A stretch of 64,000 nt of DNA from a virus. The number at the start of each line of letters is the position of its first letter. The first letter of the stretch is position 1. A model generated the notes under the pieces. It did not search any database and was not told where the DNA came from. It worked only from the letters and a program-made list of their open reading frames with translations. The translations under genes were made by a program, and so were the position numbers. This document shows positions 6,208-37,387 of the stretch, piece by piece. The stretch lies in the IMG/VR virus record IMGVR_UViG_3300034093_003283, one strand, 5' to 3'.

Positions 6208-6282
6208 GCCCATATAGCTTAATGGTAAAGCAGGGAACTCATAATTCCTTGAGTGGGGGTTCAATTCCCTCTGTGGGCACCA
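6208..6282 (+). tRNA. tRNA with CAU anticodon (Met or Ile2)
   Basis: Cloverleaf, loop CTCATAA, encoded CCA. Confidence 0.9.
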
Positions 6283-6296
6283 ATTGAAAGTGATAT

Positions 6297-6815
6297 GTGA
6301 AACAAAAATTTCGTGATGCTTATATGAAGGTGGCAGAGACTTTTGCAGAACTGTCTTCCGCCAGACGCCTTCATGTTGGCGCAATTATAGTGAAAGATGA
6401 TAGAATTATATCTATTGGATACAATGGTATGCCATCTGGTTGGGATAACAACTGTGAAGATAAAGAATACATGGACCAAACGGCGGGTGGTTGGTTGTCA
6501 CCTGAAGAAATTGAAGAACAGTGGCCATGGAGTGAACAACAGTTACCAAAAACTGAAGACCTTCCATGGCTTCGTTATAAGTTAAAAACAAAACCGGAGG
6601 TTCTTCATGCAGAAACTAATGCAATCGCTAAGCTGGCAAGATCGAATGAATCTGGCCTTGGGGCTCATCTCTTTGTTACTCATGCACCTTGTTTGGACTG
6701 TGCCAAGCTTGTTTACCAATCTGGTATCAATAGTGTTTATTATCGCAATAGTTATCGTATCCAAGATGGCTTACAATTCTTGGATAAAGCAGGAGTGAAA
6801 GTGGAAAAGATGTGA
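6297..6815 (+). CDS. cd: dCMP deaminase
   Basis: GYNG, HAETN and PCLDC zinc motifs. Confidence 0.93.
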   Translation: MKQKFRDAYMKVAETFAELSSARRLHVGAIIVKDDRIISIGYNGMPSGWDNNCEDKEYMDQTAGGWLSPEEIEEQWPWSEQQLPKTEDLPWLRYKLKTKPEVLHAETNAIAKLARSNESGLGAHLFVTHAPCLDCAKLVYQSGINSVYYRNSYRIQDGLQFLDKAGVKVEKM

Positions 6816-6858
6816 ATCTCTAAATAAGCCTGGGACATTATTGTCCAAAGGAGTTCCC

Positions 6859-7371
6859 ATGCGTGTTAGGGTAGTGAATTGTCCAGACAAAGACTTCAAG
6901 CCTTTTGTAGAAAGAGCTGCCCAATTCTACGCCAAAGAACTTGTGCCTAACACCAGAATACGAAACAACTGTTTTACTGAAATTAAATTTGATGAATCCA
7001 TACAAGAATATGGGTTTGCAAGTGTTAAAGAATACAATACAAGAAACAAACCAAGACAATTTTTGATAGAGATTCATCCAGGCATTGGGTCCAGAAGAAT
7101 ACTAGAAACACTGGCCCATGAAATGGTTCATGTCAAACAGTACATTCAAAATGAAACCAACGACCAGCTGACCAAGTGGCGGGGTAAAAGGATCAATTCT
7201 GACAAAGTGGACTATTGGGTGCAACCATGGGAAATAGATGCATATGGCCGTGAGACTGGACTACTAACAAAGTTTGCAATTTCAGAACATCTCTGGGAAA
7301 TATTTGAAGATTTTGTTAACCCTGGAGAACCAATAGTTAAACAATCAATCCGTTGGAAAATAAAATCTTAA
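6859..7371 (+). CDS. zincin-like metalloprotease (HExxH)
   Basis: TLAHEMVHVKQY, PWEIDAY. Confidence 0.75.
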   Translation: MRVRVVNCPDKDFKPFVERAAQFYAKELVPNTRIRNNCFTEIKFDESIQEYGFASVKEYNTRNKPRQFLIEIHPGIGSRRILETLAHEMVHVKQYIQNETNDQLTKWRGKRINSDKVDYWVQPWEIDAYGRETGLLTKFAISEHLWEIFEDFVNPGEPIVKQSIRWKIKS

Positions 7372-7391
7372 AAATATTTTTAAAAAACCGC

Positions 7392-7419
7392 TTGCCAAGG
7401 CTCAAAGTTTACTATATAA
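7392..7419 (+). promoter_or_regulatory. promoter for the leader and tRNA operon
   Basis: TTGCCA-N16-TATAAT. Confidence 0.7.
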
Positions 7420-7452
7420 TACAAACATATTTAATTTTTTAGAAAGAAAAAA

Positions 7453-7572
7453 GTGTCTCTCATATCCCATAAGCCCTTTACGTTACAACTAGAGTATCGC
7501 ACAATGAATTGCGCCGATAGCTCATGGGCGATTACAACCGGGTTTTGTGTAGATGAGGGATGGGACGGATAA
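7453..7572 (+). CDS. putative attenuator leader peptide, 39 aa, containing all 20 amino acids
   Basis: GTG...TAA, MSLISHKPFTLQLEYRTMNCADSSWAITTGFCVDEGWDG; AGAAAG upstream; overlaps the antiterminator strand. Confidence 0.7.
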   Translation: MSLISHKPFTLQLEYRTMNCADSSWAITTGFCVDEGWDG

Positions 7573-7599
7573 AAAAGTTCTAAAAAAGACTCCAAACAC

Positions 7600-7636
7600 A
7601 AGACCCTAGACCTAAAAAATCTAGGGTTTTTTGTTT
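7600..7636 (+). terminator. attenuator terminator upstream of the tRNA array
   Basis: AAGACCCTAGA / TCTAGGGTTTT stem with a T-rich tail; its 5' arm can instead pair with 7540-7550. Confidence 0.8.
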
Positions 7637-7708
7637 GTTGTTTCAATACAACACAGTGGTTGCCAGAATCTTTGGTTCTGATACAATACACACTTGTTCT
7701 TTAAAAAT
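7636..7708 (+). promoter_or_regulatory. TGTTG-N8-CAACA site, promoter and boxA-like element
   Basis: Palindrome 7636-7653; TTGCCA-N16-TACAAT 7660-7687; TGTTCTTTAAAAA. Confidence 0.7.
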
Positions 7709-7722
7709 TTGTTGTAGTTTAT

Positions 7723-7796
7723 TCCCGAATGGTGTAGTGGCAGCACAGCAGACTTTGACTCTGTTAGTATAAGTTCGATTCTTATTTCGGGTGCCA
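7723..7796 (+). tRNA. tRNA-Gln(TTG)
   Basis: Cloverleaf, CCA. Confidence 0.9.
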
Positions 7797-7888
7797 TATT
7801 CAAACACATTATAGTGACGCATGAGCAGGTCACCAACTTCCGCTGGTTACGACAATCGTAAGTGAGTGAAGATAGTGTGTTTCAATAT
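7797..7888 (+). ncRNA. structured spacer RNA closed by an AAACACATT/AGTGTGTTT stem
   Basis: Terminal inverted repeat and internal hairpins. Confidence 0.5.
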
Positions 7889-7981
7889 GGAAGATAATGC
7901 AGGTGGGATGGTCCGCCGACTAGCCTTGAAAACTAGGTTCTCTCAAAAAGGGATGGGGTTCGACTCCTCTGTCTTCCGCCA
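7889..7981 (+). tRNA. tRNA-Ser(TGA)
   Basis: Long variable arm, G73, CCA. Confidence 0.9.
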
Positions 7982-7989
7982 AATTTTAA

Positions 7990-8063
7990 CTGGGTATATG
8001 ATAGTGGCAGTCGCCGAGGTTTGGAACCTTGTAGTGCAAGTTCGATTCTTGCTACCCAGACCA
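7990..8063 (+). tRNA. tRNA-Pro(TGG), atypical with A37
   Basis: Loop TTTGGAA, CCA. Confidence 0.8.
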
Positions 8064-8068
8064 AAAAC

Positions 8069-8158
8069 GGAGAGTGGGCAGGATGGTAATGCAGCGGATT
8101 GCTAATCCGTAGGCTCATGAAAGTGGGCCACAGGGTTCGACTCCCTGACTCTCCACCA
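8069..8158 (+). tRNA. tRNA-Ser(GCT)
   Basis: Long variable arm, CCA. Confidence 0.9.
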
Positions 8159-8160
8159 AT

Positions 8161-8252
8161 GCCAGCGAGACTTGGTAGTCAGAGAGGTCTTATACACCTT
8201 TTAGCGCCAGATTAGCGTTCTTGATAGGGTTCGATTCCCTACGCTGGTACCA
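8161..8252 (+). tRNA. atypical tRNA with UAU anticodon and long variable arm
   Basis: GCCAGCG/CGCTGGT acceptor, loop CTTATAC, TTCGATT T-loop, ACCA. Confidence 0.75.
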
Positions 8253-8260
8253 GATTTTAT

Positions 8261-8336
8261 GTTGGTGTGACCCGAATGGCTAGGGAGCAGATTGCAAATC
8301 TGTTATATGCAGGTTCAAATCCTGTCACCAACTCCA
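8261..8336 (+). tRNA. tRNA-Cys(GCA)
   Basis: Cloverleaf, U73, CCA. Confidence 0.9.
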
Positions 8337-8340
8337 AACA

Positions 8341-8446
8341 TGTTGTAGAAATACAACAGTGCTGGTTGACAAAAGATGTGGTTGTGTTATACTTCATACA
8401 TGAATTGAGAAATCAATCAAACGTTCTTTAAAAATTTGTTGTAGTT
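8341..8446 (+). promoter_or_regulatory. TGTTG-N8-CAACA site, promoter and boxA-like element
   Basis: Palindrome 8341-8358; TTGACA-N17-TATACT; CGTTCTTTAAAAATTTGTTGTAGTT. Confidence 0.75.
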
Positions 8447-8450
8447 AATT

Positions 8451-8525
8451 GCACCTATCGTCTATCGGTTAGGACGCTGCCCTTTCAAGGCGGAAAGAGG
8501 AGTTCGATTCTCCTTAGGTGTACCA
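8451..8525 (+). tRNA. tRNA-Glu(TTC)
   Basis: Cloverleaf, CCA. Confidence 0.92.
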
Positions 8526-8648
8526 TTTGTTTTGCTGATGTAAGCCATGAGGTAAACGTCAACCTTGAGTAACTCTGTATAGAAACGGTAATTGCTGCAG
8601 CTAATTCCGTTGAGCATAGCAAATAGTGCGTCAGCAAAACAAATGGTA
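8526..8648 (+). ncRNA. structured RNA closed by a ~20-bp stem
   Basis: TACCATTTGTTTTGCTGATG (from 8521) pairs with CGTCAGCAAAACAAATGGTA. Confidence 0.55.
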
Positions 8649-8654
8649 GTTTAT

Positions 8655-8729
8655 GGAGGTATAACTTAACGGCGAAAGTAGCTGGCTTTTAACCAGTAAA
8701 TCAGAGTTCGATTCTCTGTGCCTCTACCA
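8655..8729 (+). tRNA. tRNA-Lys(TTT)
   Basis: Cloverleaf, CCA. Confidence 0.92.
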
Positions 8730-8807
8730 TATAAAAACACATTTCAATAGTTTCGACTGTGATGGATAGTTTCTGTTTAGTACAGTATCCGAAGTGTGTT
8801 TCTATAT
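8730..8807 (+). ncRNA. structured spacer RNA closed by an AAACACATTT/GAAGTGTGTTT stem
   Basis: Same terminal stem as 7797-7888 with a different interior. Confidence 0.5.
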
Positions 8808-8900
8808 GGAGCAATTGATGCTATGGCGTGTGCATCGGCGGACTGTAAATCCGTCCCCTCCGGGTAAACAATCTTGGTTCGACTCCAAGTTGCTCCACCA
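8808..8900 (+). tRNA. tRNA-Tyr(GTA)
   Basis: Long variable arm, CCA. Confidence 0.9.
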
Positions 8901-8903
8901 AAT

Positions 8904-9085
8904 CCCGGTACTACTTCCGTTAAAGTAGCGTTTGATTAGCGATAGAGATCCGGTGGCAGAAGACCGTTAGCGGAGTAATCCTGAATCTGATAGGCAGAAT
9001 CTCACTGCACACAGACTCCGAATAAATGAGATGGACAGAGTAACTGCTCAATTAAGGGCTGGCGTGGAACCCAGTAGCTTATACT
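8904..9085 (+). ncRNA. unknown structured RNA
   Basis: Several hairpins plus crossing pairs CGGAGT/ACTCCG and ATCTCA/TGAGAT. Confidence 0.5.
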
Positions 9086-9090
9086 AATTT

Positions 9091-9165
9091 GGTCTCAAAG
9101 TGTTCATGGACGCACGTATGCCTGTCACGCATAAAGAAGGGGATCGTTACCCCTTGGGACCGCCA
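9091..9165 (+). tRNA. tRNA-Asp(GTC)
   Basis: Cloverleaf, atypical T-loop ATCGTTA. Confidence 0.88.
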
Positions 9166-9173
9166 AGTTTTAT

Positions 9174-9249
9174 TCCGCAGTAGCTCAGTCGGTAGAGTAG
9201 ATGACTGTTAATCATTTGGTCGGTGGTTCGAGCCCACCCTGTGGAGCCA
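9174..9249 (+). tRNA. tRNA-Asn(GTT)
   Basis: Cloverleaf, CCA. Confidence 0.93.
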
Positions 9250-9257
9250 ATTTTTTC

Positions 9258-9334
9258 CCGTGTGTAGCTCAGCTAGGTAGAGCTCTTGGTTTGGGACCAA
9301 GTGGTCGCATGTTCGAATCGTGTCACACGGACCA
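9258..9334 (+). tRNA. tRNA-Pro(TGG)
   Basis: Cloverleaf, G37, CCA. Confidence 0.92.
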
Positions 9335-9387
9335 ATTTCGCCTTTGTTGACGGCGTATAATAGGATAAGTTGTCAACAACAAATTTT

Positions 9388-9462
9388 GGGCTGGTAGTGA
9401 TAATGGGAGCACAGGGGCTTTGCAAGCCTTTAGTCGGGGTTCGATCCCCCGCCGGTCCACCA
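9388..9462 (+). tRNA. tRNA-Ala(TGC)
   Basis: G3:U70, CCA. Confidence 0.92.
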
Positions 9463-9467
9463 AATTC

Positions 9468-9542
9468 GGTTCAGTAGCACAGTGGTAGTGCAACTCCTTC
9501 ATACGGAGTAGGTCGTTGGCTCGTATCCAACCTGAACCACCA
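9468..9542 (+). tRNA. tRNA-Met(CAT)
   Basis: Loop TTCATAC, atypical T-loop CTCGTAT, CCA. Confidence 0.85.
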
Positions 9543-9546
9543 GTAT

Positions 9547-9622
9547 GGGTCTTTAACTCAGTGAACAGAGTACTTGGCTACGAACCAAGAAGTCGTAGGT
9601 TTGAATCCTACAAGACCCTCCA
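9547..9622 (+). tRNA. tRNA-Arg(ACG)
   Basis: Cloverleaf, CCA. Confidence 0.88.
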
Positions 9623-9623
9623 A

Positions 9624-9843
9624 GCCGTTCCGCTTTGTTAGCGGATACTGTGACCCACAGGATAGAAGTGAGGTGACTCTCACGGGTGGTAGTCTTTAAA
9701 CCGAAAGGCCGCTGGCAGTGCGATAACGGTCCTGGTCGGGAAGCGGGTGGAGGGTGTGTGTTACAAGGCGTTGAACCAAACGGGGAGCCAAGTAACAACG
9801 GTGCGAGCTGACACACTAAATTACCGCCGCAGGACGCAGAGCA
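9624..9843 (+). ncRNA. ~220-nt GC-rich, pseudoknotted RNA of unknown family
   Basis: Several hairpins, CC-GAAA-GG tetraloop, long-range GGTGGTAGT/ATTACCGCC pairing. Confidence 0.65.
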
Positions 9844-9848
9844 TTTAT

Positions 9849-9922
9849 ACCCCGTTAGCTCAAAGGTAGAGCACCCGGCTGATAACCGGGAGACAGAGGA
9901 TCGTTACCTCTACAGGGTACCA
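9849..9922 (+). tRNA. tRNA-Ile(GAT)
   Basis: Cloverleaf, atypical T-loop ATCGTTA, CCA. Confidence 0.85.
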
Positions 9923-9928
9923 AATTTT

Positions 9929-10002
9929 TTCTCGCTGGTGTAATGGCAGCATAGCGGTCTCCAAAACCGTTGGTTGGGGTTCGAGTCCCTAGCGGGAAGC
10001 CA
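9929..10002 (+). tRNA. tRNA-Trp(CCA)
   Basis: Loop CTCCAAA, G73, CCA. Confidence 0.9.
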
Positions 10003-10023
10003 ATTTTTATAAAGGTGATTGAT

Positions 10024-10512
10024 ATGAAAAAGTTCGACATAGAAGAAGTCAAAACATTCCTTGCAAAACAAGGACAAGATACCAAAGTGTACCTTGGTGC
10101 TGACTCTGAAAGAATTAGAGTTAACGGTGTTTGGTATGCTGATTATGCTTTGGCTGTCGTAGTTCATATTGATGGCCGCCACGGTTGTAAGATATTTGGT
10201 TATGTAGATAGAGAAATGGATTATGACCATAAGAAAAGTAAACCTGCTATGCGTCTGATGACAGAAGTATACAAGGTTTCAGAATTGTTCCAAAACTTGG
10301 CTGACGTATTAGAAGATTTTCATGTTGAAGTTCATTTGGACTTGAACAAATCTGATGAATTCGGAAGTTCATGTGTTGTGCAACAAGCAATAGGTTATAT
10401 CAAAGGTACATGTAACATGACACCGATGGTTAAACCAGATGCACCTGCTGCTAGTTTCTGTGCCGATAGATTGAAAAGAATCTTGGCCGAACAAGAAGCA
10501 GTGCATGTCTAA
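10024..10512 (+). CDS. RNase H-fold protein (YkuK/DUF458-like)
   Basis: VYLGADS, RLMTEV, EVHLD, VKPDAPAASFCAD. Confidence 0.75.
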   Translation: MKKFDIEEVKTFLAKQGQDTKVYLGADSERIRVNGVWYADYALAVVVHIDGRHGCKIFGYVDREMDYDHKKSKPAMRLMTEVYKVSELFQNLADVLEDFHVEVHLDLNKSDEFGSSCVVQQAIGYIKGTCNMTPMVKPDAPAASFCADRLKRILAEQEAVHV

Positions 10513-10543
10513 CAGACCTCCAAAGTAATTAAGTTTACTTTGG

Positions 10544-10619
10544 GCAGTGCTTAGTGTAGTGGTCTGCACCTCTCGCTGTGACCGAGATAGTATGAGTTCG
10601 ATCCTCATAGTGCTGCCCA
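10544..10619 (+). tRNA. tRNA-His(GTG)
   Basis: G-1:C73, loop CTGTGAC. Confidence 0.9.
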
Positions 10620-10629
10620 AAGTAAATTT

Positions 10630-10704
10630 GCCTTGTTAACTCAGCGGTAGAGTGTCTCCCTTACAAGGAGAAGGTCGGCGGTTCGATCCCGTCACAAGGT
10701 ACCA
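10630..10704 (+). tRNA. tRNA-Val(TAC)
   Basis: Cloverleaf, CCA. Confidence 0.93.
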
Positions 10705-10708
10705 ACAT

Positions 10709-10784
10709 GCTGCTTTAGCTGATGTGGTCATAGCGCTGGTTTGAAGAACCAGTGAAAGAGGTTCGATCCCTCTAGGCAGCACCA
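10709..10784 (+). tRNA. tRNA-Phe(GAA)
   Basis: Cloverleaf, CCA. Confidence 0.9.
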
Positions 10785-10792
10785 ATTATTAT

Positions 10793-10869
10793 ACCCAAGT
10801 GACGAAATTGGCAAACGTGTCTCTCTCAAAAGGAGAATTTTGTGGGTTCGAATCCCATCTTGGGTACCA
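10793..10869 (+). tRNA. tRNA-Leu(CAA) with short variable loop
   Basis: Loop CTCAAAA, variable region ATTTT. Confidence 0.88.
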
Positions 10870-10870
10870 T

Positions 10871-10944
10871 GCTCTCATAGTATAATGGCATTACACATCC
10901 TTGGTAAGGATGAAAACCAAGTTCAATCCTTGGTGGGAGCACCA
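10871..10944 (+). tRNA. tRNA-Thr(GGT)
   Basis: Cloverleaf, CCA. Confidence 0.9.
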
Positions 10945-11106
10945 ATATTTTTTATTTCATCCAGTACAAAAAGCTGTTGCCTTGTTTCAAAGGATGGTGT
11001 AAAATCATTGCTGTTGGTGAATGATTTTGTTTCTTGATATGATTCCAATTTATTGGCCATATCGTATAAATCTTTAACATAATTTTTTTCCATAGAAGTA
11101 TTTATT

Positions 11107-11183
11107 GCCCCGGTGACGGAATTGGTATACGTGTTGGTCTTAGAAGCCAAATTTTGAGAGTTCGAGTCTCTCCTGGGGCACCA
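11107..11183 (+). tRNA. tRNA-Leu(TAG) with short variable loop
   Basis: Loop CTTAGAA, variable region ATTTT. Confidence 0.88.
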
Positions 11184-11190
11184 AGTTTTT

Positions 11191-11260
11191 AGTTACAGTC
11201 AGTACTGTGGGAAGTACAGGTGGACAACACCAGGACAAGGTTCGAATCCAAACTGTAATT
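11191..11260 (+). ncRNA. tRNA-like RNA without CCA
   Basis: AGTTACAGT/ACTGTAATT closing stem, two hairpins and a GGTTCGAATCC T-loop. Confidence 0.55.
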
Positions 11261-11263
11261 TTT

Positions 11264-11338
11264 CTGGCGTTAGTATAATGGACAATACAGTAGGCTTCTA
11301 CCCTTCTAATGGGAGTTCGATTCTCTCACGCCGGACCA
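11264..11338 (+). tRNA. tRNA-Arg(TCT)
   Basis: Loop CTTCTAC, CCA. Confidence 0.85.
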
Positions 11339-11342
11339 GATT

Positions 11343-11425
11343 GCGAGTATGGTGGAATAGGTAGACACAAGAGACTTAAAATCTCTCGCTTCGGCGTACC
11401 GGTTCGATTCCGGTTACTCGTACCA
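11343..11425 (+). tRNA. tRNA-Leu(TAA)
   Basis: Long variable arm, CCA. Confidence 0.92.
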
Positions 11426-11443
11426 AGTATACCAAAATATTGG

Positions 11444-11472
11444 TTGACAGTTGAATAGAAAGCATATATAAT
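11444..11472 (+). promoter_or_regulatory. sigma70 promoter before tRNA-Gly(GCC)
   Basis: TTGACA-N17-TATAAT. Confidence 0.75.
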
Positions 11473-11481
11473 AACTCTATT

Positions 11482-11556
11482 GCGGGTATGGTGCTAGTGG
11501 TAACACAAGACCTTGCCAAGGTTTAGTTGTGAGTTCGATTCTCACTACCCGCTCCA
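11482..11556 (+). tRNA. tRNA-Gly(GCC)
   Basis: Cloverleaf, U73, CCA. Confidence 0.92.
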
Positions 11557-11561
11557 GATTC

Positions 11562-11635
11562 GCCCTATTAGTATAATGGTATTACACCTGTTTTGTAATC
11601 AGGTTACGGCAGTTCGATTCTGTCATGGGGCACCA
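11562..11635 (+). tRNA. tRNA-Thr(TGT)
   Basis: Cloverleaf, CCA. Confidence 0.9.
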
Positions 11636-11643
11636 AATAAGTA

Positions 11644-11672
11644 TTGACTACAACAGATTTTTAGTGTATAAT
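11644..11672 (+). promoter_or_regulatory. sigma70 promoter before tRNA-Gly(TCC)
   Basis: TTGACT-N17-TATAAT. Confidence 0.7.
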
Positions 11673-11681
11673 AGTTTATGT

Positions 11682-11755
11682 GCGGGATTAGTTTAATGGT
11701 AAAACAGCAGATTTCCAATCTTCGGTCATCAGTTCGATTCTGATATCCCGCTCCA
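11682..11755 (+). tRNA. tRNA-Gly(TCC)
   Basis: Cloverleaf, U73, CCA. Confidence 0.9.
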
Positions 11756-29213: not shown

Positions 29214-29221
29214 TATAAATA
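29214..29221 (+). promoter_or_regulatory. T4-type late promoter
   Basis: TATAAATA upstream of the internal-protein cluster. Confidence 0.7.
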
Positions 29222-29265
29222 ACCTCACGGGCAACCAAAGTGTGTTGCGTTTCTATAGGTAAACA

Positions 29266-30468
29266 ATGTTATCTTTCAAGAGCTTTTTAACCGAACAAGA
29301 GGATCCCGATGAGGGCGCCAGCCGTCAGATTAAACACCTGACGCATGTGGAAGACCGTCCCCTACAAACAGGTGAAAAAGGCACAGCACATGCTATCAAG
29401 TCATTGACAGCTTCAGCTGAACACATCAAGGCAGGTAAGAAGACTTCCGAACTTACCACAAAATATGATGGTTCACCTGCACTTGTTTATGGTCACCATC
29501 CAACCACTGGTAAATTCTTTGTTGCATCCAAATCAGCTTTCAACAAGACACCAAAGATTAACTATACACCAAAAGACATTGATAAGAACCACGGACACGC
29601 ACCTGGCCTAGCTGCCAAGTTAAAAGATGCGCTGACTCATTTGTTCAAGACTTCACCTAAACAAGGTGTTTATCAAGGTGATATGATGTTTGGTACCGAC
29701 AAGGGTGATAAACAACAAGAGAAAAATGGCGGACATTCTTTCCATCCAAATCCGTCTGGTCTAACTTATACTGCTCACGGCCAACATGCTGCCGATGTTA
29801 AGAAAGCAAAAATTGGTGTTGTGACACACTTGTCATATCAAGGTAAAGATGCAGGCAATTTAAATGTATCACACGAAGTTGACCATGAAAACTTCAAGAA
29901 ACATCCAGATGTATTCTCAGTTGATCCAAGAATGGACACAGCAAAAGTTCATTTCAGTCCAGAAGAACAAAAGAAATTCAACAAACATATTGCAATGGCT
30001 CAATCGGTACATGACACCCATGGTGATGACATGTATGCTGGTACAAAAGCACATCATGGAGTTGGTGGTTCATTGGAAACCTATATGAATCATACAGTTA
30101 GAACAAGTGAAGAACCCAATCATCAAAACTTTAAGAATTGGTTAGAAACCGATACAAATAAAAAAATTGATAAACTTAAAGTTGAAAAGAATCGTACAGC
30201 CAAACAAGCTGATCTTAAAGCTGAACTTGGTAAAATTGAAAGAAATAAAAAACACTATAACAATGTATTTAAAATGCATGGCCATTTACAAAAGGCCAAA
30301 GATACTCTCATTGGTGTTATGAATCAACACCAAGAATTTCAACACTCACATGCCGGTGAAGATGCTAATCCAGAAGGATATGTTTTCCATCACAATAACG
30401 AATCGGACAAATTTGTTAATCGTGCGGAATTCTCTAAGAGAAATTTTGCTGGGATCAGAAACATATGA
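29266..30468 (+). CDS. ligase-like nucleotidyltransferase-fold protein with a capsid-targeting-like N-terminus
   Basis: MLSFKSFLTE; TKYDGSP (KxDG), QGD, EGYV, KFVNR. Confidence 0.6.
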   Translation: MLSFKSFLTEQEDPDEGASRQIKHLTHVEDRPLQTGEKGTAHAIKSLTASAEHIKAGKKTSELTTKYDGSPALVYGHHPTTGKFFVASKSAFNKTPKINYTPKDIDKNHGHAPGLAAKLKDALTHLFKTSPKQGVYQGDMMFGTDKGDKQQEKNGGHSFHPNPSGLTYTAHGQHAADVKKAKIGVVTHLSYQGKDAGNLNVSHEVDHENFKKHPDVFSVDPRMDTAKVHFSPEEQKKFNKHIAMAQSVHDTHGDDMYAGTKAHHGVGGSLETYMNHTVRTSEEPNHQNFKNWLETDTNKKIDKLKVEKNRTAKQADLKAELGKIERNKKHYNNVFKMHGHLQKAKDTLIGVMNQHQEFQHSHAGEDANPEGYVFHHNNESDKFVNRAEFSKRNFAGIRNI

Positions 30469-32267
30469 AAAAGTTTTTAGAAAAAATACAAGAAGATGCA
30501 CAGACGCATACACCTGCGGTAATGGCATTTGGTCGGATGAATCCTCCAACTATTGGCCATGAGAAATTGGTTGATAAGGTAAAGCAGATAGCAAAAGACT
30601 ATAAAGCACCGCACCATATTATTGTTTCACATTCTATGGATGCAAAGAAGAACCCACTAGACACCACAAGCAAAATCAAACACGCAAAGAGATTCTTTCC
30701 TGGTGCAAATATAACTTCATCCAGTAAAGAGAAACCAACTTTCTTGCAACACGCTGCAGCATTACATGCAGCTGGCCACGATCACTTGATAATGGTTGCA
30801 GGTTCAGATAGAACCTCTGAGTATGAACAAAAACTAAATCAATACAACGGTGAAGGTCCAGGCAAACTATTCAACTTTAAAAAGATTGAAGTTAAGTCTG
30901 CTGGCCAGCGTGATCCTGATGCCGAAGGTGCAGAAGGTATGTCAGCCTCCAAGATGCGTGAACATGCAAAGAGTGGTGACTTCAACTCCTTCAAACAAGG
31001 TGTACCAGCACACGTACCTGAGAAACATGCAAAAGAATTGTTCCGTGATGTTCGTAAAGGTATGGGTATAAATGAGAATTACAATCGTGGTCTTTTCAGA
31101 GCCATATTTGTGACAGGTGGTCCTGGTTCTGGTAAAGACATTATCATTCGTGAAGCAATTCCAGAAACTAAGGCTGTAGAATTGAATTCAGTACAGGCTT
31201 TCGAATATCTAATGGATAAACAAAAGTTATCTGAAAAGACAAATGACCACCGCAGAGAAGCAATCCGCAATCGTGGCCCATTGATTATTAATGGACCGGC
31301 AGATGACCACTCCAGAATACTTACCATCAAAGAAGAACTAGAAGAATTAGGTTATAGTACCACTATGGTATTTGTTGACACAACCAACGAAGCCAGTAAA
31401 GAGAGAAATGAAAGATTGACAAAAACACTTGCCGAATCAATTAGATATGATAAGTGGAAACTTGCACAGACAAGTAAGCAAGCATACATTCAAAACTTTC
31501 AGAATTTTATGGAATTCAATAACAGTACTACATTAGATGAAATTGAAGAAGATATTTCTGACACTTACGAAAAAATAAATACATTTATTGAGAACAGAAA
31601 ATTTAATGAAATTGCGTTCTCTTGGTTGGAAAATCACGGTAAATATAATATAACTGACTCTGTTTTTAAGGAAGATGAAAATGTTAAAAAGAATTTTAGA
31701 TTTGTTGAAAATTACAAAACCAAGCGCACCGGTACAGGACAAGCATCCACTGGACATCCAAAAGTATCAGCCGGAACAGGCCCCAGTGCAGACGGTCCAA
31801 GTGACATTACCCCAGACAATCGTGCAGGAGACTCCAACGCCGACAATATCAAGTGGGACAGAAACGCCAAGCGTGGAGGTTACACCTTCAGAACCTACAC
31901 CGAAGACTCCGGCCCCACAGTTAAAGTCTACCCAGCCCCGAAAGAAAGCAACTTCAGCAAAGACAAAGAAAAAATAAAGAAAAAAGGCTTGGTTGATTCT
32001 CCTACTGTTAGTCAGAGGATGAGGAATGTTTCAGGAATCAGCCAAGAATTTGATACTCGCCAACAGGGAACAGTATACCCTATGTCTGGTCTTGGCGATG
32101 TGACATATAGAGAACAAGTCGATTTTAAACGATTTAGAGAATCATTTAATGATCCATCGGATTCCGAAATGGGAGTAGCTGGTGTTTTAGGTGGTTCTAC
32201 AAATAAAGAGCCAATGGAAAATCCAAACGATAAGATGGGTTACTTTAACAAGAAGAAAAAGAAATGA
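30465..32267 (+). CDS. cytidylyltransferase/NMNAT-like domain fused to a P-loop kinase
   Basis: FGRMNPPTIGH, AGSDR, MSASKMR; GGPGSGKD. Confidence 0.8.
   Translation: MKKFLEKIQEDAQTHTPAVMAFGRMNPPTIGHEKLVDKVKQIAKDYKAPHHIIVSHSMDAKKNPLDTTSKIKHAKRFFPGANITSSSKEKPTFLQHAAALHAAGHDHLIMVAGSDRTSEYEQKLNQYNGEGPGKLFNFKKIEVKSAGQRDPDAEGAEGMSASKMREHAKSGDFNSFKQGVPAHVPEKHAKELFRDVRKGMGINENYNRGLFRAIFVTGGPGSGKDIIIREAIPETKAVELNSVQAFEYLMDKQKLSEKTNDHRREAIRNRGPLIINGPADDHSRILTIKEELEELGYSTTMVFVDTTNEASKERNERLTKTLAESIRYDKWKLAQTSKQAYIQNFQNFMEFNNSTTLDEIEEDISDTYEKINTFIENRKFNEIAFSWLENHGKYNITDSVFKEDENVKKNFRFVENYKTKRTGTGQASTGHPKVSAGTGPSADGPSDITPDNRAGDSNADNIKWDRNAKRGGYTFRTYTEDSGPTVKVYPAPKESNFSKDKEKIKKKGLVDSPTVSQRMRNVSGISQEFDTRQQGTVYPMSGLGDVTYREQVDFKRFRESFNDPSDSEMGVAGVLGGSTNKEPMENPNDKMGYFNKKKKK
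31681..31977 (+). CDS. nested out-of-frame Pro/Thr/Lys-rich protein
   Basis: AAGGAAG SD 6 nt before ATG; amphipathic N-terminus and basic tail. Confidence 0.45.
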   Translation: MLKRILDLLKITKPSAPVQDKHPLDIQKYQPEQAPVQTVQVTLPQTIVQETPTPTISSGTETPSVEVTPSEPTPKTPAPQLKSTQPRKKATSAKTKKK

Positions 32268-32476
32268 AAAAATTCACAGAGTTTGTCAAAGAATCGACAC
32301 CAGCAACACAGCAACATGACGCTCAGGAATTGAAGCGTCAAAAAACCCATTTGATGAATAAATCAAAAGAGTATTCTGACCAGGCTGAAAAAGAGAAACA
32401 CTTTGGCCACGGCGGAGCAGCGGAAGCTAAAGGTGAAACAATGGCCCAGGCCGCACAAAATGTTAAAAAGTTTTAA
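32264..32476 (+). CDS. putative internal head protein
   Basis: MKKFTEFVKE N-terminus. Confidence 0.65.
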   Translation: MKKFTEFVKESTPATQQHDAQELKRQKTHLMNKSKEYSDQAEKEKHFGHGGAAEAKGETMAQAAQNVKKF

Positions 32477-32765
32477 AGAATTCATGATAGAAACTGCCGC
32501 ATGGCAGCGTTCTGCTGGAAAAAATCCAGATGGTGGCTTAAATAGAAAAGGTATTGCATCTTATCGTGCAGAAAATCCTGGTTCAAAATTGTCGATGGCT
32601 GTTACAACAAAACCATCAAAATTAAAACCTGGATCTAAGGCAGCAAATAGACGTAAATCCTTTTGTGCTAGAATGTCGGGAATGAAAAAGAGATTAACTT
32701 CTGCGGCAACCGCCAAGGATCCAGATTCAAGAATCAATAAATCACTACGCAAGTGGAATTGCTAA
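32460..32765 (+). CDS. putative internal head protein (basic)
   Basis: MLKSFKEFMIE; RRKSFCARM. Confidence 0.7.
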   Translation: MLKSFKEFMIETAAWQRSAGKNPDGGLNRKGIASYRAENPGSKLSMAVTTKPSKLKPGSKAANRRKSFCARMSGMKKRLTSAATAKDPDSRINKSLRKWNC

Positions 32766-32780
32766 AAACGGAGAACAAAA

Positions 32781-33668
32781 ATGATAGACCTAAGAAAAAA
32801 AGATGACATGATTGCAGCAATTGAACAAATTCTTCAACAAGAAGCACTCAAGGGCAATCAACATTTAATTGATAAAAATAAAAACAACAAAGTTGATCCA
32901 GAAGATTTTAAAATTCTTCGTGGTGAAAAGAAAACTGTCAAAGAAGAAGAAACTGTTGATGAAGGCATCAAAGAACTTGCCAAGAAAGCTTTCAAAGCAG
33001 TTACTGGTGGTTCAGATGAAGACCAACGTAAAGACCTACAACGCAAGATGGGTCTACCACAAACTGGTAAGAAACCAACTCCTCAAAAAGAAGAAGTTGT
33101 TGATGAAAGCCTACTAGGCCAATTGAGAGATCGTGGTAATGTTGCTACAGGTCAAAAACAACAAGATCGTAAGAATTTTGATACAAATACTGGTGCTGCA
33201 TTAAAACCAAATAGCACAATTAGTGGTATTAGAGCTAAGATGCAAAACAAAGTCCAAGAGGAATCTGAACAAATTGATGAGTTGTCTAAAAGCACTCTTG
33301 GTTCTTATATTAAAAAAGCAGCTGCTGACTCCACAATTTCTCGTAAAATTGGAGCTGATTTTGAAAATCGAGCAAATTCAAAAAGAAGTCCTGCAATGAA
33401 AGATGCATCTACAGCACTTTCAGATAAGTTTAAATCCGATTCACGTAAACGTAAAGCTAATGTCGATAAAGCAGTTGATCGTTTAACAAAAGAAGAAAAA
33501 CAACCAAAAACTCTCCGTCAATTCAAAGAAGGCTGGGAAGAAATGATGGCCGATGTTAAGAAACGTGCAGAGCCAAAACCAAATGGTGGTTCAGGTGTCA
33601 AACAAGGTTCTCGTTACGGTGGTTCTAAACAAAAAGACACACCAGAACAGGACACAGAAAAAAAGTAA
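32781..33668 (+). CDS. modular internal head polyprotein-like protein
   Basis: Modules separated by KEEETVDE, KEEVVDE, EESEQIDE. Confidence 0.7.
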   Translation: MIDLRKKDDMIAAIEQILQQEALKGNQHLIDKNKNNKVDPEDFKILRGEKKTVKEEETVDEGIKELAKKAFKAVTGGSDEDQRKDLQRKMGLPQTGKKPTPQKEEVVDESLLGQLRDRGNVATGQKQQDRKNFDTNTGAALKPNSTISGIRAKMQNKVQEESEQIDELSKSTLGSYIKKAAADSTISRKIGADFENRANSKRSPAMKDASTALSDKFKSDSRKRKANVDKAVDRLTKEEKQPKTLRQFKEGWEEMMADVKKRAEPKPNGGSGVKQGSRYGGSKQKDTPEQDTEKK

Positions 33669-33829
33669 CTGAGGCAAAAGGACCAACCAGTCAGGAAGAC
33701 GGACCTTTTGTCTCTAACATCAATGATGCAGAAGATTTGAAGCCATTGAATCACGCAAGATACTTGGCCAAAAAATCTTTGAAAAGAGTTAAGAACGAAA
33801 TGATGGGTAAAGCAGGTACATCAGAATAA
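33659..33829 (+). other. programmed -1 frameshift site and 54-codon extension
   Basis: A_AAA_AAG, 5-nt spacer, 11-bp stem; -1 frame open to TAA 33827-33829. Confidence 0.75.
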
Positions 33830-33837
33830 GGTAAAAA

Positions 33838-35418
33838 ATGAGCAAAGCGCTAACAATAAAATCAATAGTAAAAGGCACCGCAGATAAGCCAACTTTCGGT
33901 ACCAATCCTAGAGATCCGTGGTCCGCAAAAGCAAACATTGCGGAAGATGCTGCTTTAAACACATACTTGAAATCTAGAGGTATCAATCCAGAATTTGCAA
34001 CAAAAGACCAGAAGGTTTCGCATTCCAAGACAGGACAATTCATCAAGTGGAAAAGAGACCACATGATAGAGTCCATCACAGAAGCAATTGACAAGATGGA
34101 TGTTATCATGTTTGATATTCCATTGTTGATTCGTATGTTAGAGTATGCTCGTGAAGATGCAAAGACTGATATGGATTTGCACAAGGTTGTTGAGAAGTTA
34201 ATACACATTCGTAAAAAAGGTGTGTTGACTATGAAAGACTATACCTTTGTGACAAGGCTAAGAGAAGGCCTTGAACTTGATGAAAATCATGTTGCAATCG
34301 CAATGGGTCAAATGATGGACGATGAAGGTAGTATGGTTTTGAATCAGTTGGACCAAATGGAACGTGCCGTAAACATGGTTCGTGATTACATTGGTACAGA
34401 CTATGAAAAACAACTACCTGCATGGGTTCAGTCAAAACTAACATTGGCATCCGACTATATTGATACTGTTGGTAACTATCTAAACAGTAAGAATGAAGAT
34501 GTTAATGAAGCTGCATCAGCTTCTATCCGTATGTACAAGGCCTTGCAACAAGCCAAAGAGAAACGTGAACGTGAAGAACGCTTGGGTAACGAACTGTTGA
34601 ACAAGAAACCACCAGAACAAAAGCCTGTACAAAAAGAGGAAGTGAAAGACGAATATGCTCGTAAGGTCAACAAATATTTAAAAAAGAAATATGCACCAGA
34701 ACAGAAACCTGTGCAAAAAGAGGAAGTTGAAATTGACGAAGGATGGAAAAGAGCATTAGGTGCTACCGCAATAGCAGGCACTATGGCCCTGGCCAGTGGT
34801 GCCCACGCAAGAGTCAGTGGTGACCATGTGGACAACCCAGAAATTAATCGACTAACAGGTCAACCAAAAGTTACACAACAAATTTCTCCTGGCGCCACAA
34901 AACCCGCAGCGACAAATCCAGGGTTTAAGAAAGAATACTTACAAAGCGTTGCAGATGGAACACACCCAAGACCTTTGATTAGTAAAGAACGTGCTCAGGA
35001 ATTACTTCAACAACATAAAGACAGTGATAAAGGCACTCAAAAGAACGAAAACTATCAGGACCCAATGGCCGCAACATCTATGCCAAACGGCGGAGCAAAC
35101 AGTCCAGATGATGTTATGCCAAAAGATAAAAATAAGAAACTGATTCAAATGTCTAAGTCTGCTCGAATTATTAAGTCCATCTACAAAAGGAAGGGCATGA
35201 AAGAGGAGATTTATGACCACGAAAAGGAAGATAAGTCTGTTGCAACCTATGGTAAGAAACCAAAAATCCAAAGAGCAACAGATAATTCCAATATGGAGAA
35301 ACCACAAGCCGCTGCAGTTATGACGGGTGGCACCACCTTAACTGGTGAAAAGAGAGATACCATCGAAATCGATCCTATGATGAAGATGCGTAGTAGACCC
35401 GATTCTGGAAAAAGATAA
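33838..35418 (+). CDS. modular internal head polyprotein-like protein
   Basis: IAE, ITE, LDE, VNE and IDE junctions; duplicated PEQKPVQKEEV. Confidence 0.7.
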   Translation: MSKALTIKSIVKGTADKPTFGTNPRDPWSAKANIAEDAALNTYLKSRGINPEFATKDQKVSHSKTGQFIKWKRDHMIESITEAIDKMDVIMFDIPLLIRMLEYAREDAKTDMDLHKVVEKLIHIRKKGVLTMKDYTFVTRLREGLELDENHVAIAMGQMMDDEGSMVLNQLDQMERAVNMVRDYIGTDYEKQLPAWVQSKLTLASDYIDTVGNYLNSKNEDVNEAASASIRMYKALQQAKEKREREERLGNELLNKKPPEQKPVQKEEVKDEYARKVNKYLKKKYAPEQKPVQKEEVEIDEGWKRALGATAIAGTMALASGAHARVSGDHVDNPEINRLTGQPKVTQQISPGATKPAATNPGFKKEYLQSVADGTHPRPLISKERAQELLQQHKDSDKGTQKNENYQDPMAATSMPNGGANSPDDVMPKDKNKKLIQMSKSARIIKSIYKRKGMKEEIYDHEKEDKSVATYGKKPKIQRATDNSNMEKPQAAAVMTGGTTLTGEKRDTIEIDPMMKMRSRPDSGKR

Positions 35419-35453
35419 ATAGTAACATAACCCTCGGTTAAAAGGAGAATAAA

Positions 35454-36323
35454 ATGTCATCTTGGGGAAATAACGATAACGCAGCTAACGCACCATACTG
35501 GGCTGTTGAAACAGTACAAACAACAAATGCACCGGTTGCATCCGCACCAACAGCAGCAAACGTTGCATTGTTGTATGGTAACACACAATTCCAGGCATAT
35601 ACACAAGGTATGACTGTTGGATTATTCATGGTAGATGCTACAGAAACCACTGCTGGTGGTGATAATGTAGTAGATATCTCATTGTCAAATCAAGGTGCAG
35701 GATATGTTGAAGCACCTGGTGTTTCTATTGTAGCTAGTGCTGGTGCATATAGTGCAAGTGCCACCGCTACTATTTCTGCTGGACTGGTGAGTAATATTAC
35801 AGTTGCAAACACTGGTGTTGGTTACACATCAACTCCAGCAGTTACAATTCAAGTACCTGTTTTAACTGTTCCTACAGCTACAGTAATTGTTGCCAATAAC
35901 GTAATAATGTATACCGCACACGGGCAAGCAAATAGTGCGGCTCTTGTTTTCAACTGGGGCGGCTCTGCTAACATTAATGGTCTAACAAACGCAAACACAT
36001 ACTATGTTGTGCCTGTTGATGCAAATCGTTTCTCGTTGGCCAACACCGCAGCCCTTGCAGCAAACAATTCTGTTATTGACCTTTCATCAACTGGTGAAAC
36101 AGGACAATTCTTTACTATTGTTGATGCAACCAGAGCAACAGCAATTGCAAGTCGTGGTTTAAGTCAAAGTGTTGATGGATCAGAACATGCAACACACACT
36201 GGTTGGAACATAAAAACAGTTGGTTCCGGTGGCCGTGCAGGTCGTGTTCAGTATGAAACGTTAGTTGCCATTTCCGAAATTATAGGTGATGGTTCGGACG
36301 ATATTACTTTACCTGACGCTTAA
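35454..36323 (+). CDS. virion structural protein
   Basis: MSSWG start, Ala/Thr/Val-rich, GRVQYETLVA C-terminus. Confidence 0.7.
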   Translation: MSSWGNNDNAANAPYWAVETVQTTNAPVASAPTAANVALLYGNTQFQAYTQGMTVGLFMVDATETTAGGDNVVDISLSNQGAGYVEAPGVSIVASAGAYSASATATISAGLVSNITVANTGVGYTSTPAVTIQVPVLTVPTATVIVANNVIMYTAHGQANSAALVFNWGGSANINGLTNANTYYVVPVDANRFSLANTAALAANNSVIDLSSTGETGQFFTIVDATRATAIASRGLSQSVDGSEHATHTGWNIKTVGSGGRAGRVQYETLVAISEIIGDGSDDITLPDA

Positions 36324-36350
36324 TAAAAGGGGCTTCGGCCCCTCTATAAT

Positions 36351-36737
36351 ATGTTTGATGAATTGAATGAAGATAATTTTATGATGTATGCTATGAAATG
36401 CTATACATCACCACACTGTATTATGTCGGAATTTGAGGGAGATATTAAAAGAACGAAATACCTGAAAAGGTTATTCCGTAGATACAAGATAACAAAATCC
36501 CTCAAAGAACGATTGATTATAAACCATATCATTTTATTGAACAATGTTTTTGGTCCAGAAGCAACTGCAAGAATATTGTTCTATAAGACTGATGTTCGTG
36601 ATTATGATATTCTAAAAACTTTTTTGGATTATCTAGATATCATGCCTGATTTTGTTTATGGTGTAAATGGAAAAACTATAGTATCATCAGAAATACCACT
36701 AGATATAAATGTCGCAGAGATATTAAGAAACATATGA
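36351..36737 (+). CDS. conserved T4-like hypothetical protein
   Basis: RLIINHIILLNNVFG. Confidence 0.75.
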   Translation: MFDELNEDNFMMYAMKCYTSPHCIMSEFEGDIKRTKYLKRLFRRYKITKSLKERLIINHIILLNNVFGPEATARILFYKTDVRDYDILKTFLDYLDIMPDFVYGVNGKTIVSSEIPLDINVAEILRNI

Positions 36738-37387
36738 AAACATTCAAAGATTACTTAGAAGAAAAAGGTCGTTGCTGGCCAGGTCATAGACCTGTTCCGG
36801 GTAAAAAACCTTTTTCTCCAGGTAGCTGCACAAAAGAAGAACTTGAATTGCAAGAAGATTTGCGAAAGTGGTTTAAACAAAAATGGGTTCGCATGGACAC
36901 CAAGGGAAACATTAAAGGTGATTGTGCTCGTGAACCTGGTGAAGGCAAACCAAAATGCCTACCTCAATCAAAAGCACAAGCATTAGGCAAAGAAGGTCGT
37001 GCCAGTGCAGCAAGAAGAAAACGCAGAGAAGATCCTAATCCAGAACGCCGTGGTGCACCTATCAATGTTGCTACCGAAGAAGTTGAACAGATTGATGAAA
37101 AAAATGTTCCAACTAGTCCGGAAAAATGGGCTCGAGCAAAAGCAGCTGCTAAATCAAAATTTGCAGTATATCCATCAGCATATGCAAATGGCTGGGCGTC
37201 CAAAAAATATAAATCAATGGGTGGTGGATGGAGAGCAACATCGGAAGAAGTCATGTCAGCTGCACCAACTAACGCTGTCGGCACTGGTAACATTGCAGGT
37301 TCAGGTGGTGCAGGTGGAGAACCAGGTGTTTCTAAGAAAAGAAATCCACTAATGTCATTCTATAAACGAAAACCTCCAAAGATGTAA
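36734..37387 (+). CDS. modular internal head protein
   Basis: MKTFKDYLEE; KEELELQE, EEVEQIDE. Confidence 0.7.
   Translation: MKTFKDYLEEKGRCWPGHRPVPGKKPFSPGSCTKEELELQEDLRKWFKQKWVRMDTKGNIKGDCAREPGEGKPKCLPQSKAQALGKEGRASAARRKRREDPNPERRGAPINVATEEVEQIDEKNVPTSPEKWARAKAAAKSKFAVYPSAYANGWASKKYKSMGGGWRATSEEVMSAAPTNAVGTGNIAGSGGAGGEPGVSKKRNPLMSFYKRKPPKM

Follow-up and report, generated by a model that had tools for sequence, protein, structure and literature searches.

In the lambda G/GT tail assembly chaperone and the T7 capsid 10A/10B, a -1 slip near the end of a late gene gives a minor extended form; the lambda slippery sequence is G_GGA_AAG, no hairpin is needed there, and the T7 10B extension is about 50 amino acids (aa), similar in size to the one described below. 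In Escherichia coli dnaX (tau/gamma), the heptamer A_AAA_AAG is read by tRNA-Lys and is followed a few nucleotides (nt) downstream by a stable stem-loop, with a Shine-Dalgarno-like element upstream. The insertion sequences IS3/IS911 produce their OrfAB fusion near the end of the upstream open reading frame (ORF), OrfA, from A_AAA_AAG (or A_AAA_AAA) with a 3' structure, and related elements alternate between ribosomal and transcriptional slippage (PMC5009743, PMC4066793); the lambda frameshift is described in the former. We analyzed a 64,000-nt stretch (the window) of IMG/VR record IMGVR_UViG_3300034093_003283, part of a 111-kb viral contig, in which the gene P0001 ends on the dnaX-type heptamer with a stem-loop closely behind it. 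Programmed -1 ribosomal frameshifting probably takes place at this site, yielding products of 295 and 349 aa, and it is very likely that the extension is expressed through slippage of one kind or another.

Like dnaX and IS3/IS911, this site combines A_AAA_AAG with a 3' structure; we identified no pseudoknot. At dnaX, the -1 frame stops almost immediately and the shifted product is the shorter one, whereas here the zero frame ends directly behind the heptamer and shifted ribosomes would add 54 residues. An upstream element is present in dnaX; in our locus it is a candidate only, an AGGA that lies closer to the heptamer (6 to 9 nt). The dnaX gene family is unrelated to P0001. In IS3/IS911 the extension is the transposase catalytic domain, whereas here a phage protein would gain a small module at its end; the alternation of slippage types among those elements has a parallel in the A7-plus-stem and A10 variants that we describe below. 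Lambda and T7 shift in a tail chaperone and a major capsid protein, whereas P0001 is a modular, Lys/Glu-rich protein with no assigned function. The elements of the site, numbered from the first letter of the window, are as follows.

32781..33668, plus strand: P0001, the zero-frame ORF, 295 aa, Lys/Glu-rich and modular, ending in ...DTEKK*
33649..33652, plus strand: AGGA, candidate Shine-Dalgarno-like upstream stimulator read from the sequence, 6 nt before the heptamer
33659..33665, plus strand: slippery heptamer A_AAA_AAG, X_XXY_YYZ in the zero-frame register, within an A7 run at 33658-33664
33666..33668, plus strand: zero-frame stop TAA abutting the heptamer, invariant across all shift-type loci
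33671..33714, plus strand: stem-loop of 11 bp including one G-U, arms 33671-33681 and 33704-33714, 5 nt 3' of the heptamer
33665..33829, plus strand: -1 frame extension, 54 codons (VTEAKGP...GTSE) plus TAA, with coding conservation and no start of its own

The original prediction had proposed a frameshift from the ORF, heptamer, spacer, stem, and -1 frame, and all of these coordinates were exact on rechecking. The 3' end of P0001 reads GAA (33657-59) AAA AAG and then TAA, so that the heptamer stands in the register that lets both tRNAs re-pair from the zero-frame codons AAA AAG, as in dnaX/IS-type sites. Most ribosomes would read GAA AAA AAG and terminate at TAA, giving the 295-aa protein. A minority would pause over A_AAA_AAG, held by the stem-loop 5 nt farther on and perhaps also by the adjacent stop codon; both tRNA-Lys would re-pair one base back, on AAA AAA, and translation would resume at GUA ACU GAG... 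for 54 codons. The predicted trans-frame product is 349 aa long with the junction ...DTEKK-VTEAK.... The abutting stop may contribute because slow termination gives time for a P-site slip on A_AAG; both X_XXZ_ZZN heptamers and Z_ZZN tetramers were included in a motif survey (Sharma et al. 2014, PMC4066793). A further contribution might come from the upstream AGGA. An AGG(A) 6 to 9 nt upstream of the heptamer is retained in variants, but it overlaps conserved codons and its spacing is shorter than in dnaX. A tRNA array in the window (6208-11755, 28 genes) includes a tRNA-Lys(UUU) at 8655-8729, and none of the phage's 28 tRNA genes is a tRNA-Lys(CUU). Because AAG decoded by a tRNA with a UUU anticodon is slip-prone at dnaX-type sites (Atkins et al. 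2016, PMC5009743), we counted this tRNA set in favor of a ribosomal frameshift.

The heptamer by itself was rejected as evidence, as its frequency in the window is that expected by chance (40 copies versus 37.8 expected). Five copies lie in register inside ORFs, and only the one at 33659 is at an ORF end with a long -1 frame: the frame stays open for 54 codons there, versus 4 to 14 codons at the other four. Relatives were collected as a set of 80 loci through P0001, as 51 IMG/VR and 52 metagenome contigs through the DNA pattern of the cassette (these two sets overlap in part), and as 80 further loci with the neighboring module plus the extension (80 aa) as the query. We refer to loci with the extension in the -1 frame as shift-type, and the heptamer is invariant across all of them. 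The exact A7-G-TAA-plus-stem cassette is present in 51/51 IMG/VR contigs and in 51/52 metagenome contigs, the remaining one having A6. The run is constant although the upstream ends vary (...DTPEQDTEKK, ...DKPEQETDEKK, ...DVPEKDTDEKK, and ...DKPEQAKEKK). An assembly error hiding an eighth A, which the original prediction had raised as a concern, is thereby set aside, and the A7 shift-type relatives all showed the conservation of heptamer and stem that it had asked for.

The -1 frame from 33665 reads VTEAKGPTSQEDGPF...GKAGTSE and stops at 33827-33829, 8 nt before the ATG at 33838; GPTSQEDGPFVSNINDAEDLKPLNHAR is a tryptic peptide of the predicted extension. We found no ATG, GTG, or TTG in this frame from the upstream stop until codon 25, and the TTG at codon 25 is not conserved (it is TTT in locus L009, and in L012 an ATG is placed elsewhere). 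By tblastn, the extension peptide matched about 55 loci at 100 to 48% identity. The frame is intact wherever the contig allows, and in all loci its stop lies just ahead of the ribosome-binding site (RBS) and ATG of one and the same downstream gene. Between shift-type loci, the pairwise ratio of nonsynonymous to synonymous substitution rates (dN/dS) in the -1 frame was 0.03 to 0.50, and the variable sites were distributed 16/14/32 over the three codon positions. The frame is intact at a dN/dS of 0.03 to 0.5 even between lineages whose upstream proteins are only 43 to 49% identical. Judged by these substitution patterns, purifying selection acts on the peptide of the -1 frame. The stretch that is conserved best is the first 16 codons, ahead of any possible start. 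Read as protein, the extension is a genuine module, about 50 aa long, in which the motifs EAKGP...PF...KPL..A..LAKKSL..(V/I)..EMMGK are conserved; no family for it was found in Pfam, PHROGs, or the ESM Atlas. As in dnaX/IS-type recoding, then, the -1 ORF is conserved as coding sequence, lacks a start, and is homologous to in-frame sequence of relatives. Gene callers missed it in every relative, which leaves a false intergenic gap of 170 nt.

In the stem-loop, the 5' arm GAGGCAAAAGG (33671-33681) pairs with the 3' arm CCTTTTGTCTC (33704-33714; also written CCUUUUGUCUC in this pairing) after the 5-nt spacer UAACU. A stable structure about 5 to 9 nt past the heptamer is typical of dnaX/IS-type sites, and the stem-loop is the putative stimulator of the slip. 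It folds with a minimum free energy of -18.8 kcal/mol; shuffled sequences average -9.95 (standard deviation, 2.46; z = -3.6), and 0/200 of them were as stable. In an alignment of 27 distinct A7 sequences, mean pairwise nucleotide identity was 0.94 to 0.97 at positions -4 to +55 from the heptamer G, a span that coincides with the heptamer, spacer, and stem-loop, versus 0.80 to 0.87 on both flanks and less farther out. One of six third-codon sites in the stem arms was variable, compared with 31 of 43 elsewhere (nominal Fisher P = 0.015). The arm changes among shift-type sequences either keep the pairing (A-U to G-U, four sequences) or lengthen the stem; variants with GGU in place of GGA have a 14-bp stem of -26 to -27.7 kcal/mol. 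By this comparison of sites, the RNA signal is under extra constraint. For the 60 nt past the junction, the mean folding energy was -18.5 kcal/mol over 22 distinct shift-type sequences versus -9.2 kcal/mol over 26 distinct in-frame ones (nominal Mann-Whitney P = 3e-7), where the 22 were classed by script and include L055/L056, an in-frame fusion on inspection. The script had called L055/L056 shift-type with A9-G-TAA; we rejected the call, since the upstream frame runs in-frame through the A9 (...DDDKKK-VTESKRP). The in-frame locus L072 retains the EAK...PF peptide motifs, yet 4 of the 11 stem pairs are broken.

The same junction occurs in other arrangements among the relatives. The distinct junction sequences comprise 26 in-frame, 2 stand-alone, and the 22 shift-type ones above. 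In L067, the same two modules lie in one frame, ...GSRYGGSKQKDKPEQE-VKEGKDPN...MMGKKNV* (the preceding residues are also given as GGSKQKDKPEQE-VKEGKDP), and in L038 they are joined in-frame as ...KPEQDTDKK-VNESKRP.... The L038 junction (DTDKKVNESK) mirrors the one predicted for the window product, ...PEQDTEKK-VTEAKGP... (DTEKKVTEAK). In L072, L140, and P0125-P0129, the module is joined in-frame to a different preceding module; L069 has the preceding module of the L072 group, but shifted (...ATKSAKNEEKKK*, then -1, VNEAKRPESD...). The original prediction had regarded plain in-frame fusions without the stem as evidence against a frameshift. Such fusions do exist, but only at a distance; since the shift is kept throughout the close and mid-distance relatives, we count these distant fusions as classical support for recoding. 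Separate genes and longer A runs complete the series.

L076:4239-4421 and L031:4206-4388: stand-alone extension genes, coupled through an overlapping ATGA; leader, MKSFKEFKSLME
L069:3940-4100 and L142:1480-1650 (= L143): shift-type relatives with A10-G-TAA, lacking the strong hairpin

In the A10 lineages, the post-junction fold is -8.6 to -9.0 kcal/mol. Comparison of the two signal types suggests that the lost putative stimulator is offset by a more slippery run, and L069 and L142/L143 are candidates for transcriptional or stem-independent ribosomal slippage at the same junction. In the stand-alone loci, where no frameshift is needed, the start of the module also folds into a hairpin (about -19 kcal/mol), whose register differs. 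P0124 was given no weight: it comes from one contig, in which a deletion upstream brings it into the extension frame.

The frameshift proposed originally thus agrees with the invariant heptamer, stop, and stem, with purifying selection on an extension that ends at the next RBS, and with in-frame and separate homologues. Several points weigh against a ribosomal slip stimulated by the stem. Both stem arms fall within conserved peptide motifs (EAKG and GPFV), and the GAAGG/CCUUUU complementarity may come partly from conserved E/K-G and P-F codons; the stand-alone loci have a comparable hairpin and some in-frame loci weaker ones, so coding may account for some of the pairing. We saw no compensatory covariation (11 of 14 pairs never vary among the shift-type sequences), which would be undetectable because these sequences are about 95% identical across the stem. 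The same close relatedness means that the P values for the stem (0.015 and 3e-7) are not phylogenetically independent and are inflated. The supply of tRNA-Lys was read from the phage genes. Finally, the A10 variants without a strong stem indicate that slippage can suffice stem-free, which leaves room for a transcriptional mechanism.

Under such a mechanism, the RNA polymerase would add one A at the A7, mRNAs with A8 would encode the 349-aa fusion, and the hairpin would either play no part or influence the polymerase or the stability of the mRNA. The product would be identical to that of a ribosomal slip, and no covariation was found that would tie the stem to the ribosome. Seven A's are, however, short for efficient slippage by bacterial RNA polymerase, as the known programmed cases have about nine or more. 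Across the window and about 100 related contig records, the run is shorter than this; it is fixed at A7 followed by G, the optimal ribosomal heptamer, with the hairpin at the canonical 5 nt. The hairpin is strong where the run is short and weak where it is long, as predicted for a ribosomal stimulator. A10, at which polymerase slippage is known to occur (Atkins et al. 2016, PMC5009743), is restricted to the divergent relatives L069 and L142/L143, which have no strong stem. Transcriptional slippage is therefore less likely than ribosomal slippage for A7, although it is more plausible for the A10 relatives, and for the window we regard it as unlikely.

It is very improbable that the extension is instead translated as a small free protein, by internal or noncanonical initiation or by reinitiation after the TAA. 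The module is indeed its own ATGA-coupled gene in L076 and L031, and an ATG directly follows the TAA in half of the shift-type loci, but that ATG is in the zero frame rather than the extension frame and is CTG in the window and many loci. The extension frame has no start until the unconserved TTG of codon 25, downstream of the best-conserved 16 codons. The zero-frame mini-ORF that the ATG would open in about half of the loci was itself rejected as a candidate, since the window has CTG and the substitution pattern fits the -1 frame. Least probable is that there is no recoding at all, with the gene ending at TAA and the -1 ORF being the remnant of a fused module or the A7 a sequencing artifact. 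Homopolymer runs are prone to indels, and two contigs deviate, one from a metagenome with A6 and one from Logan with A8 in-frame (P0123; L215:415-1054, SRR17410013). We did not accept P0123 as a natural fused allele: its gene has a second break upstream and looks error-prone, and because the same gene is broken twice, the A8 is probably a homopolymer error. A7 is shared by about 100 contig records, drawn from many samples, and a dead remnant would have gained stops and a dN/dS of about 1, whereas the frame is intact everywhere at 0.03 to 0.5. Programmed -1 ribosomal frameshifting thus stands as the best explanation, and the shift probably serves to lower the dose of the last module relative to the rest of the protein. 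We observed the signal, its conservation, the coding -1 frame, and the in-frame homologues; from these, the ribosomal nature of the slip, its efficiency, and its purpose are inferred, as is the fixed ratio of two isoforms that the original prediction had proposed.

The family-B DNA polymerase of the window's phage shares about 50% identity with its counterparts in T4-like cyanophages, and the phage also encodes a DnaB-type helicase, a ribonucleotide reductase, and an endolysin. By this gene content, together with the 28-gene tRNA array and a gp21-type prohead protease, the phage is T4-like; it is an uncultured one of freshwater or other aquatic habitats. Searches of 50,697 phage records with the region or with P0001 (megablast, blastn, and tblastn) returned nothing useful from cultured phages, and none of the cultured T4-like cyanophages carrying the gene family matched the extension or the cassette. 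The neighboring module alone matches cultured cyanophages, e.g., S-B43 and Syn9 gp114, and S-B43 is syntenic (cytidylyltransferase, modular protein, and, further on, primase and NrdA). By these matches, the gene family is also present in cultured T4-like cyanophages. The KERIVKGMKK...VMYATA module matches Synechococcus phage Syn9 (NC_008296.2:102789-104207) from a point upstream of the annotated GTG of gp114, so this start (VMYATANK...) is probably placed too far downstream.

P0001 has 1,385 metagenomic homologues. Members of the family are chains of short modules, from about 200 to more than 500 aa, and modules are inserted, deleted, and swapped exactly at acidic EE-[V/I]-x-E boundaries (window P0001 and homologues P0003-P0026). 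The close homologues of P0001 all end in EKK*. The N-terminal module of P0001 contains an EF-hand-like loop, DKNKNNKVDPED; several homologues have precomputed EF-hand matches in Pfam, and the window protein falls below the threshold. The original prediction had called P0001 an internal head polyprotein. No Pfam or PHROG match to a head or internal-protein family was found for P0001, the extension, or their relatives, and P0001 has no sequence homology to the T4 internal proteins. The same contig does encode a gp21-type protease (Peptidase_S77, PF03420; 113.9 bits, E = 3.8e-34; G000:C1:25503-25946). T4 gp21 cleaves after L/I-X-E (PMC9026906), and sites resembling this motif are present at the module boundaries of P0001 (VDE59, VDE107, and IDE165). 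A further one, VTE296, is created at the frameshift junction, which bears out the suggestion that the extension begins with a boundary like the others.

The T4 capsid targeting sequence (CTS) is MKTYQEFIAE (PMC8442874). The N terminus of P0001, MIDLRKKDDMIAAIEQ, resembles it only weakly; clearly CTS-like leaders are found in neighbors at 30465, 32264, 32460, and 36734 and in the stand-alone homologue of the extension (MKSFKEFKSLME). The ORFs with CTS-like leaders sit downstream of a T4-late-promoter-like TATAAATA at 29214 (window 29214-37387). These leaders and the gene next to P0001 are listed below.

29266: CTS-like leader MLSFKSFLTE
30465: CTS-like leader MKKFLEKIQE, on a cytidylyltransferase/kinase fusion
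32264: CTS-like leader MKKFTEFVKE
32460: CTS-like leader MLKSFKEFMIE, on a DUF6321 protein; the TTG at 32403 listed as its start is probably wrong
33838..35418, plus strand: P0002, the next gene, 526 aa, modular and Lys/Glu-rich; its RBS, TAAGGT, overlaps the stop of the extension
36734: CTS-like leader MKTFKDYLEE

This arrangement suggests that the ORFs with CTS-like leaders encode a group of cargo proteins packaged in the head. For P0001, the internal head polyprotein label is plausible on evidence that is coherent though circumstantial (the gp21-type protease, the [V/I]-x-E boundaries, and the CTS-like leaders nearby), and head targeting and cleavage of P0001 make a reasonable hypothesis. 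P0002 has a duplicated linker, PEQKPVQKEEV, and [V/I]-x-E sites, and it contains a further in-register A_AAA_AAG at 34680, where the -1 frame is open for 14 codons only.

The gp21-processed proteins of T4 (IPI-III, Alt, and the core proteins) invite comparison with the gp21-type protease, [V/I]-x-E boundaries, and nearby CTS-like leaders here. The T4 internal proteins are single proteins that are cut once, and none is known to use frameshifting, whereas P0001 is a multimodule chain. An analogy, and no more than an analogy, is offered by retroviral Gag/Gag-Pol, in which a -1 shift at the end of a capsid-directed polyprotein adds a substoichiometric cargo and a capsid-associated protease cuts the chain; that system is wholly unrelated, and capsid targeting and cleavage are predicted rather than observed in ours. 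We tentatively raise the possibility that P0001 follows a comparable strategy, as a capsid-targeted cargo chain that would be cut at [V/I]-x-E by the gp21-type protease, with the frameshift setting a substoichiometric dose of the last peptide, which would be packaged and delivered with the DNA. The last cargo might then be AKGPTSQ...GTSE, about 51 aa after cleavage at VTE|A, though this too is doubtful. In the same speculative vein, evolution may have toggled the module among in-frame fusion (1:1), frameshift (reduced dose), and a gene of its own with a capsid-targeting leader.

Our literature search returned no report of a frameshift for this gene family or for uncultured T4-like aquatic myoviruses. 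Going by the comparative evidence, the site is a real and conserved case of classical recoding, in a gene family and a phage group that are new to it; it is mechanistically ordinary and evolutionarily neat. It adds a comparatively well-supported -1 frameshift to a family and group for which we found none described. One junction exists in four forms (A7 with hairpin, A10 without hairpin, in-frame fusion, and split gene), a natural experiment that makes the family useful for studying how frameshift signals arise and what strength they require. If P0001 is truly a protease-processed chain of head cargo, the frameshift would serve to set the dose of an injected peptide, which would be new for tailed phages.

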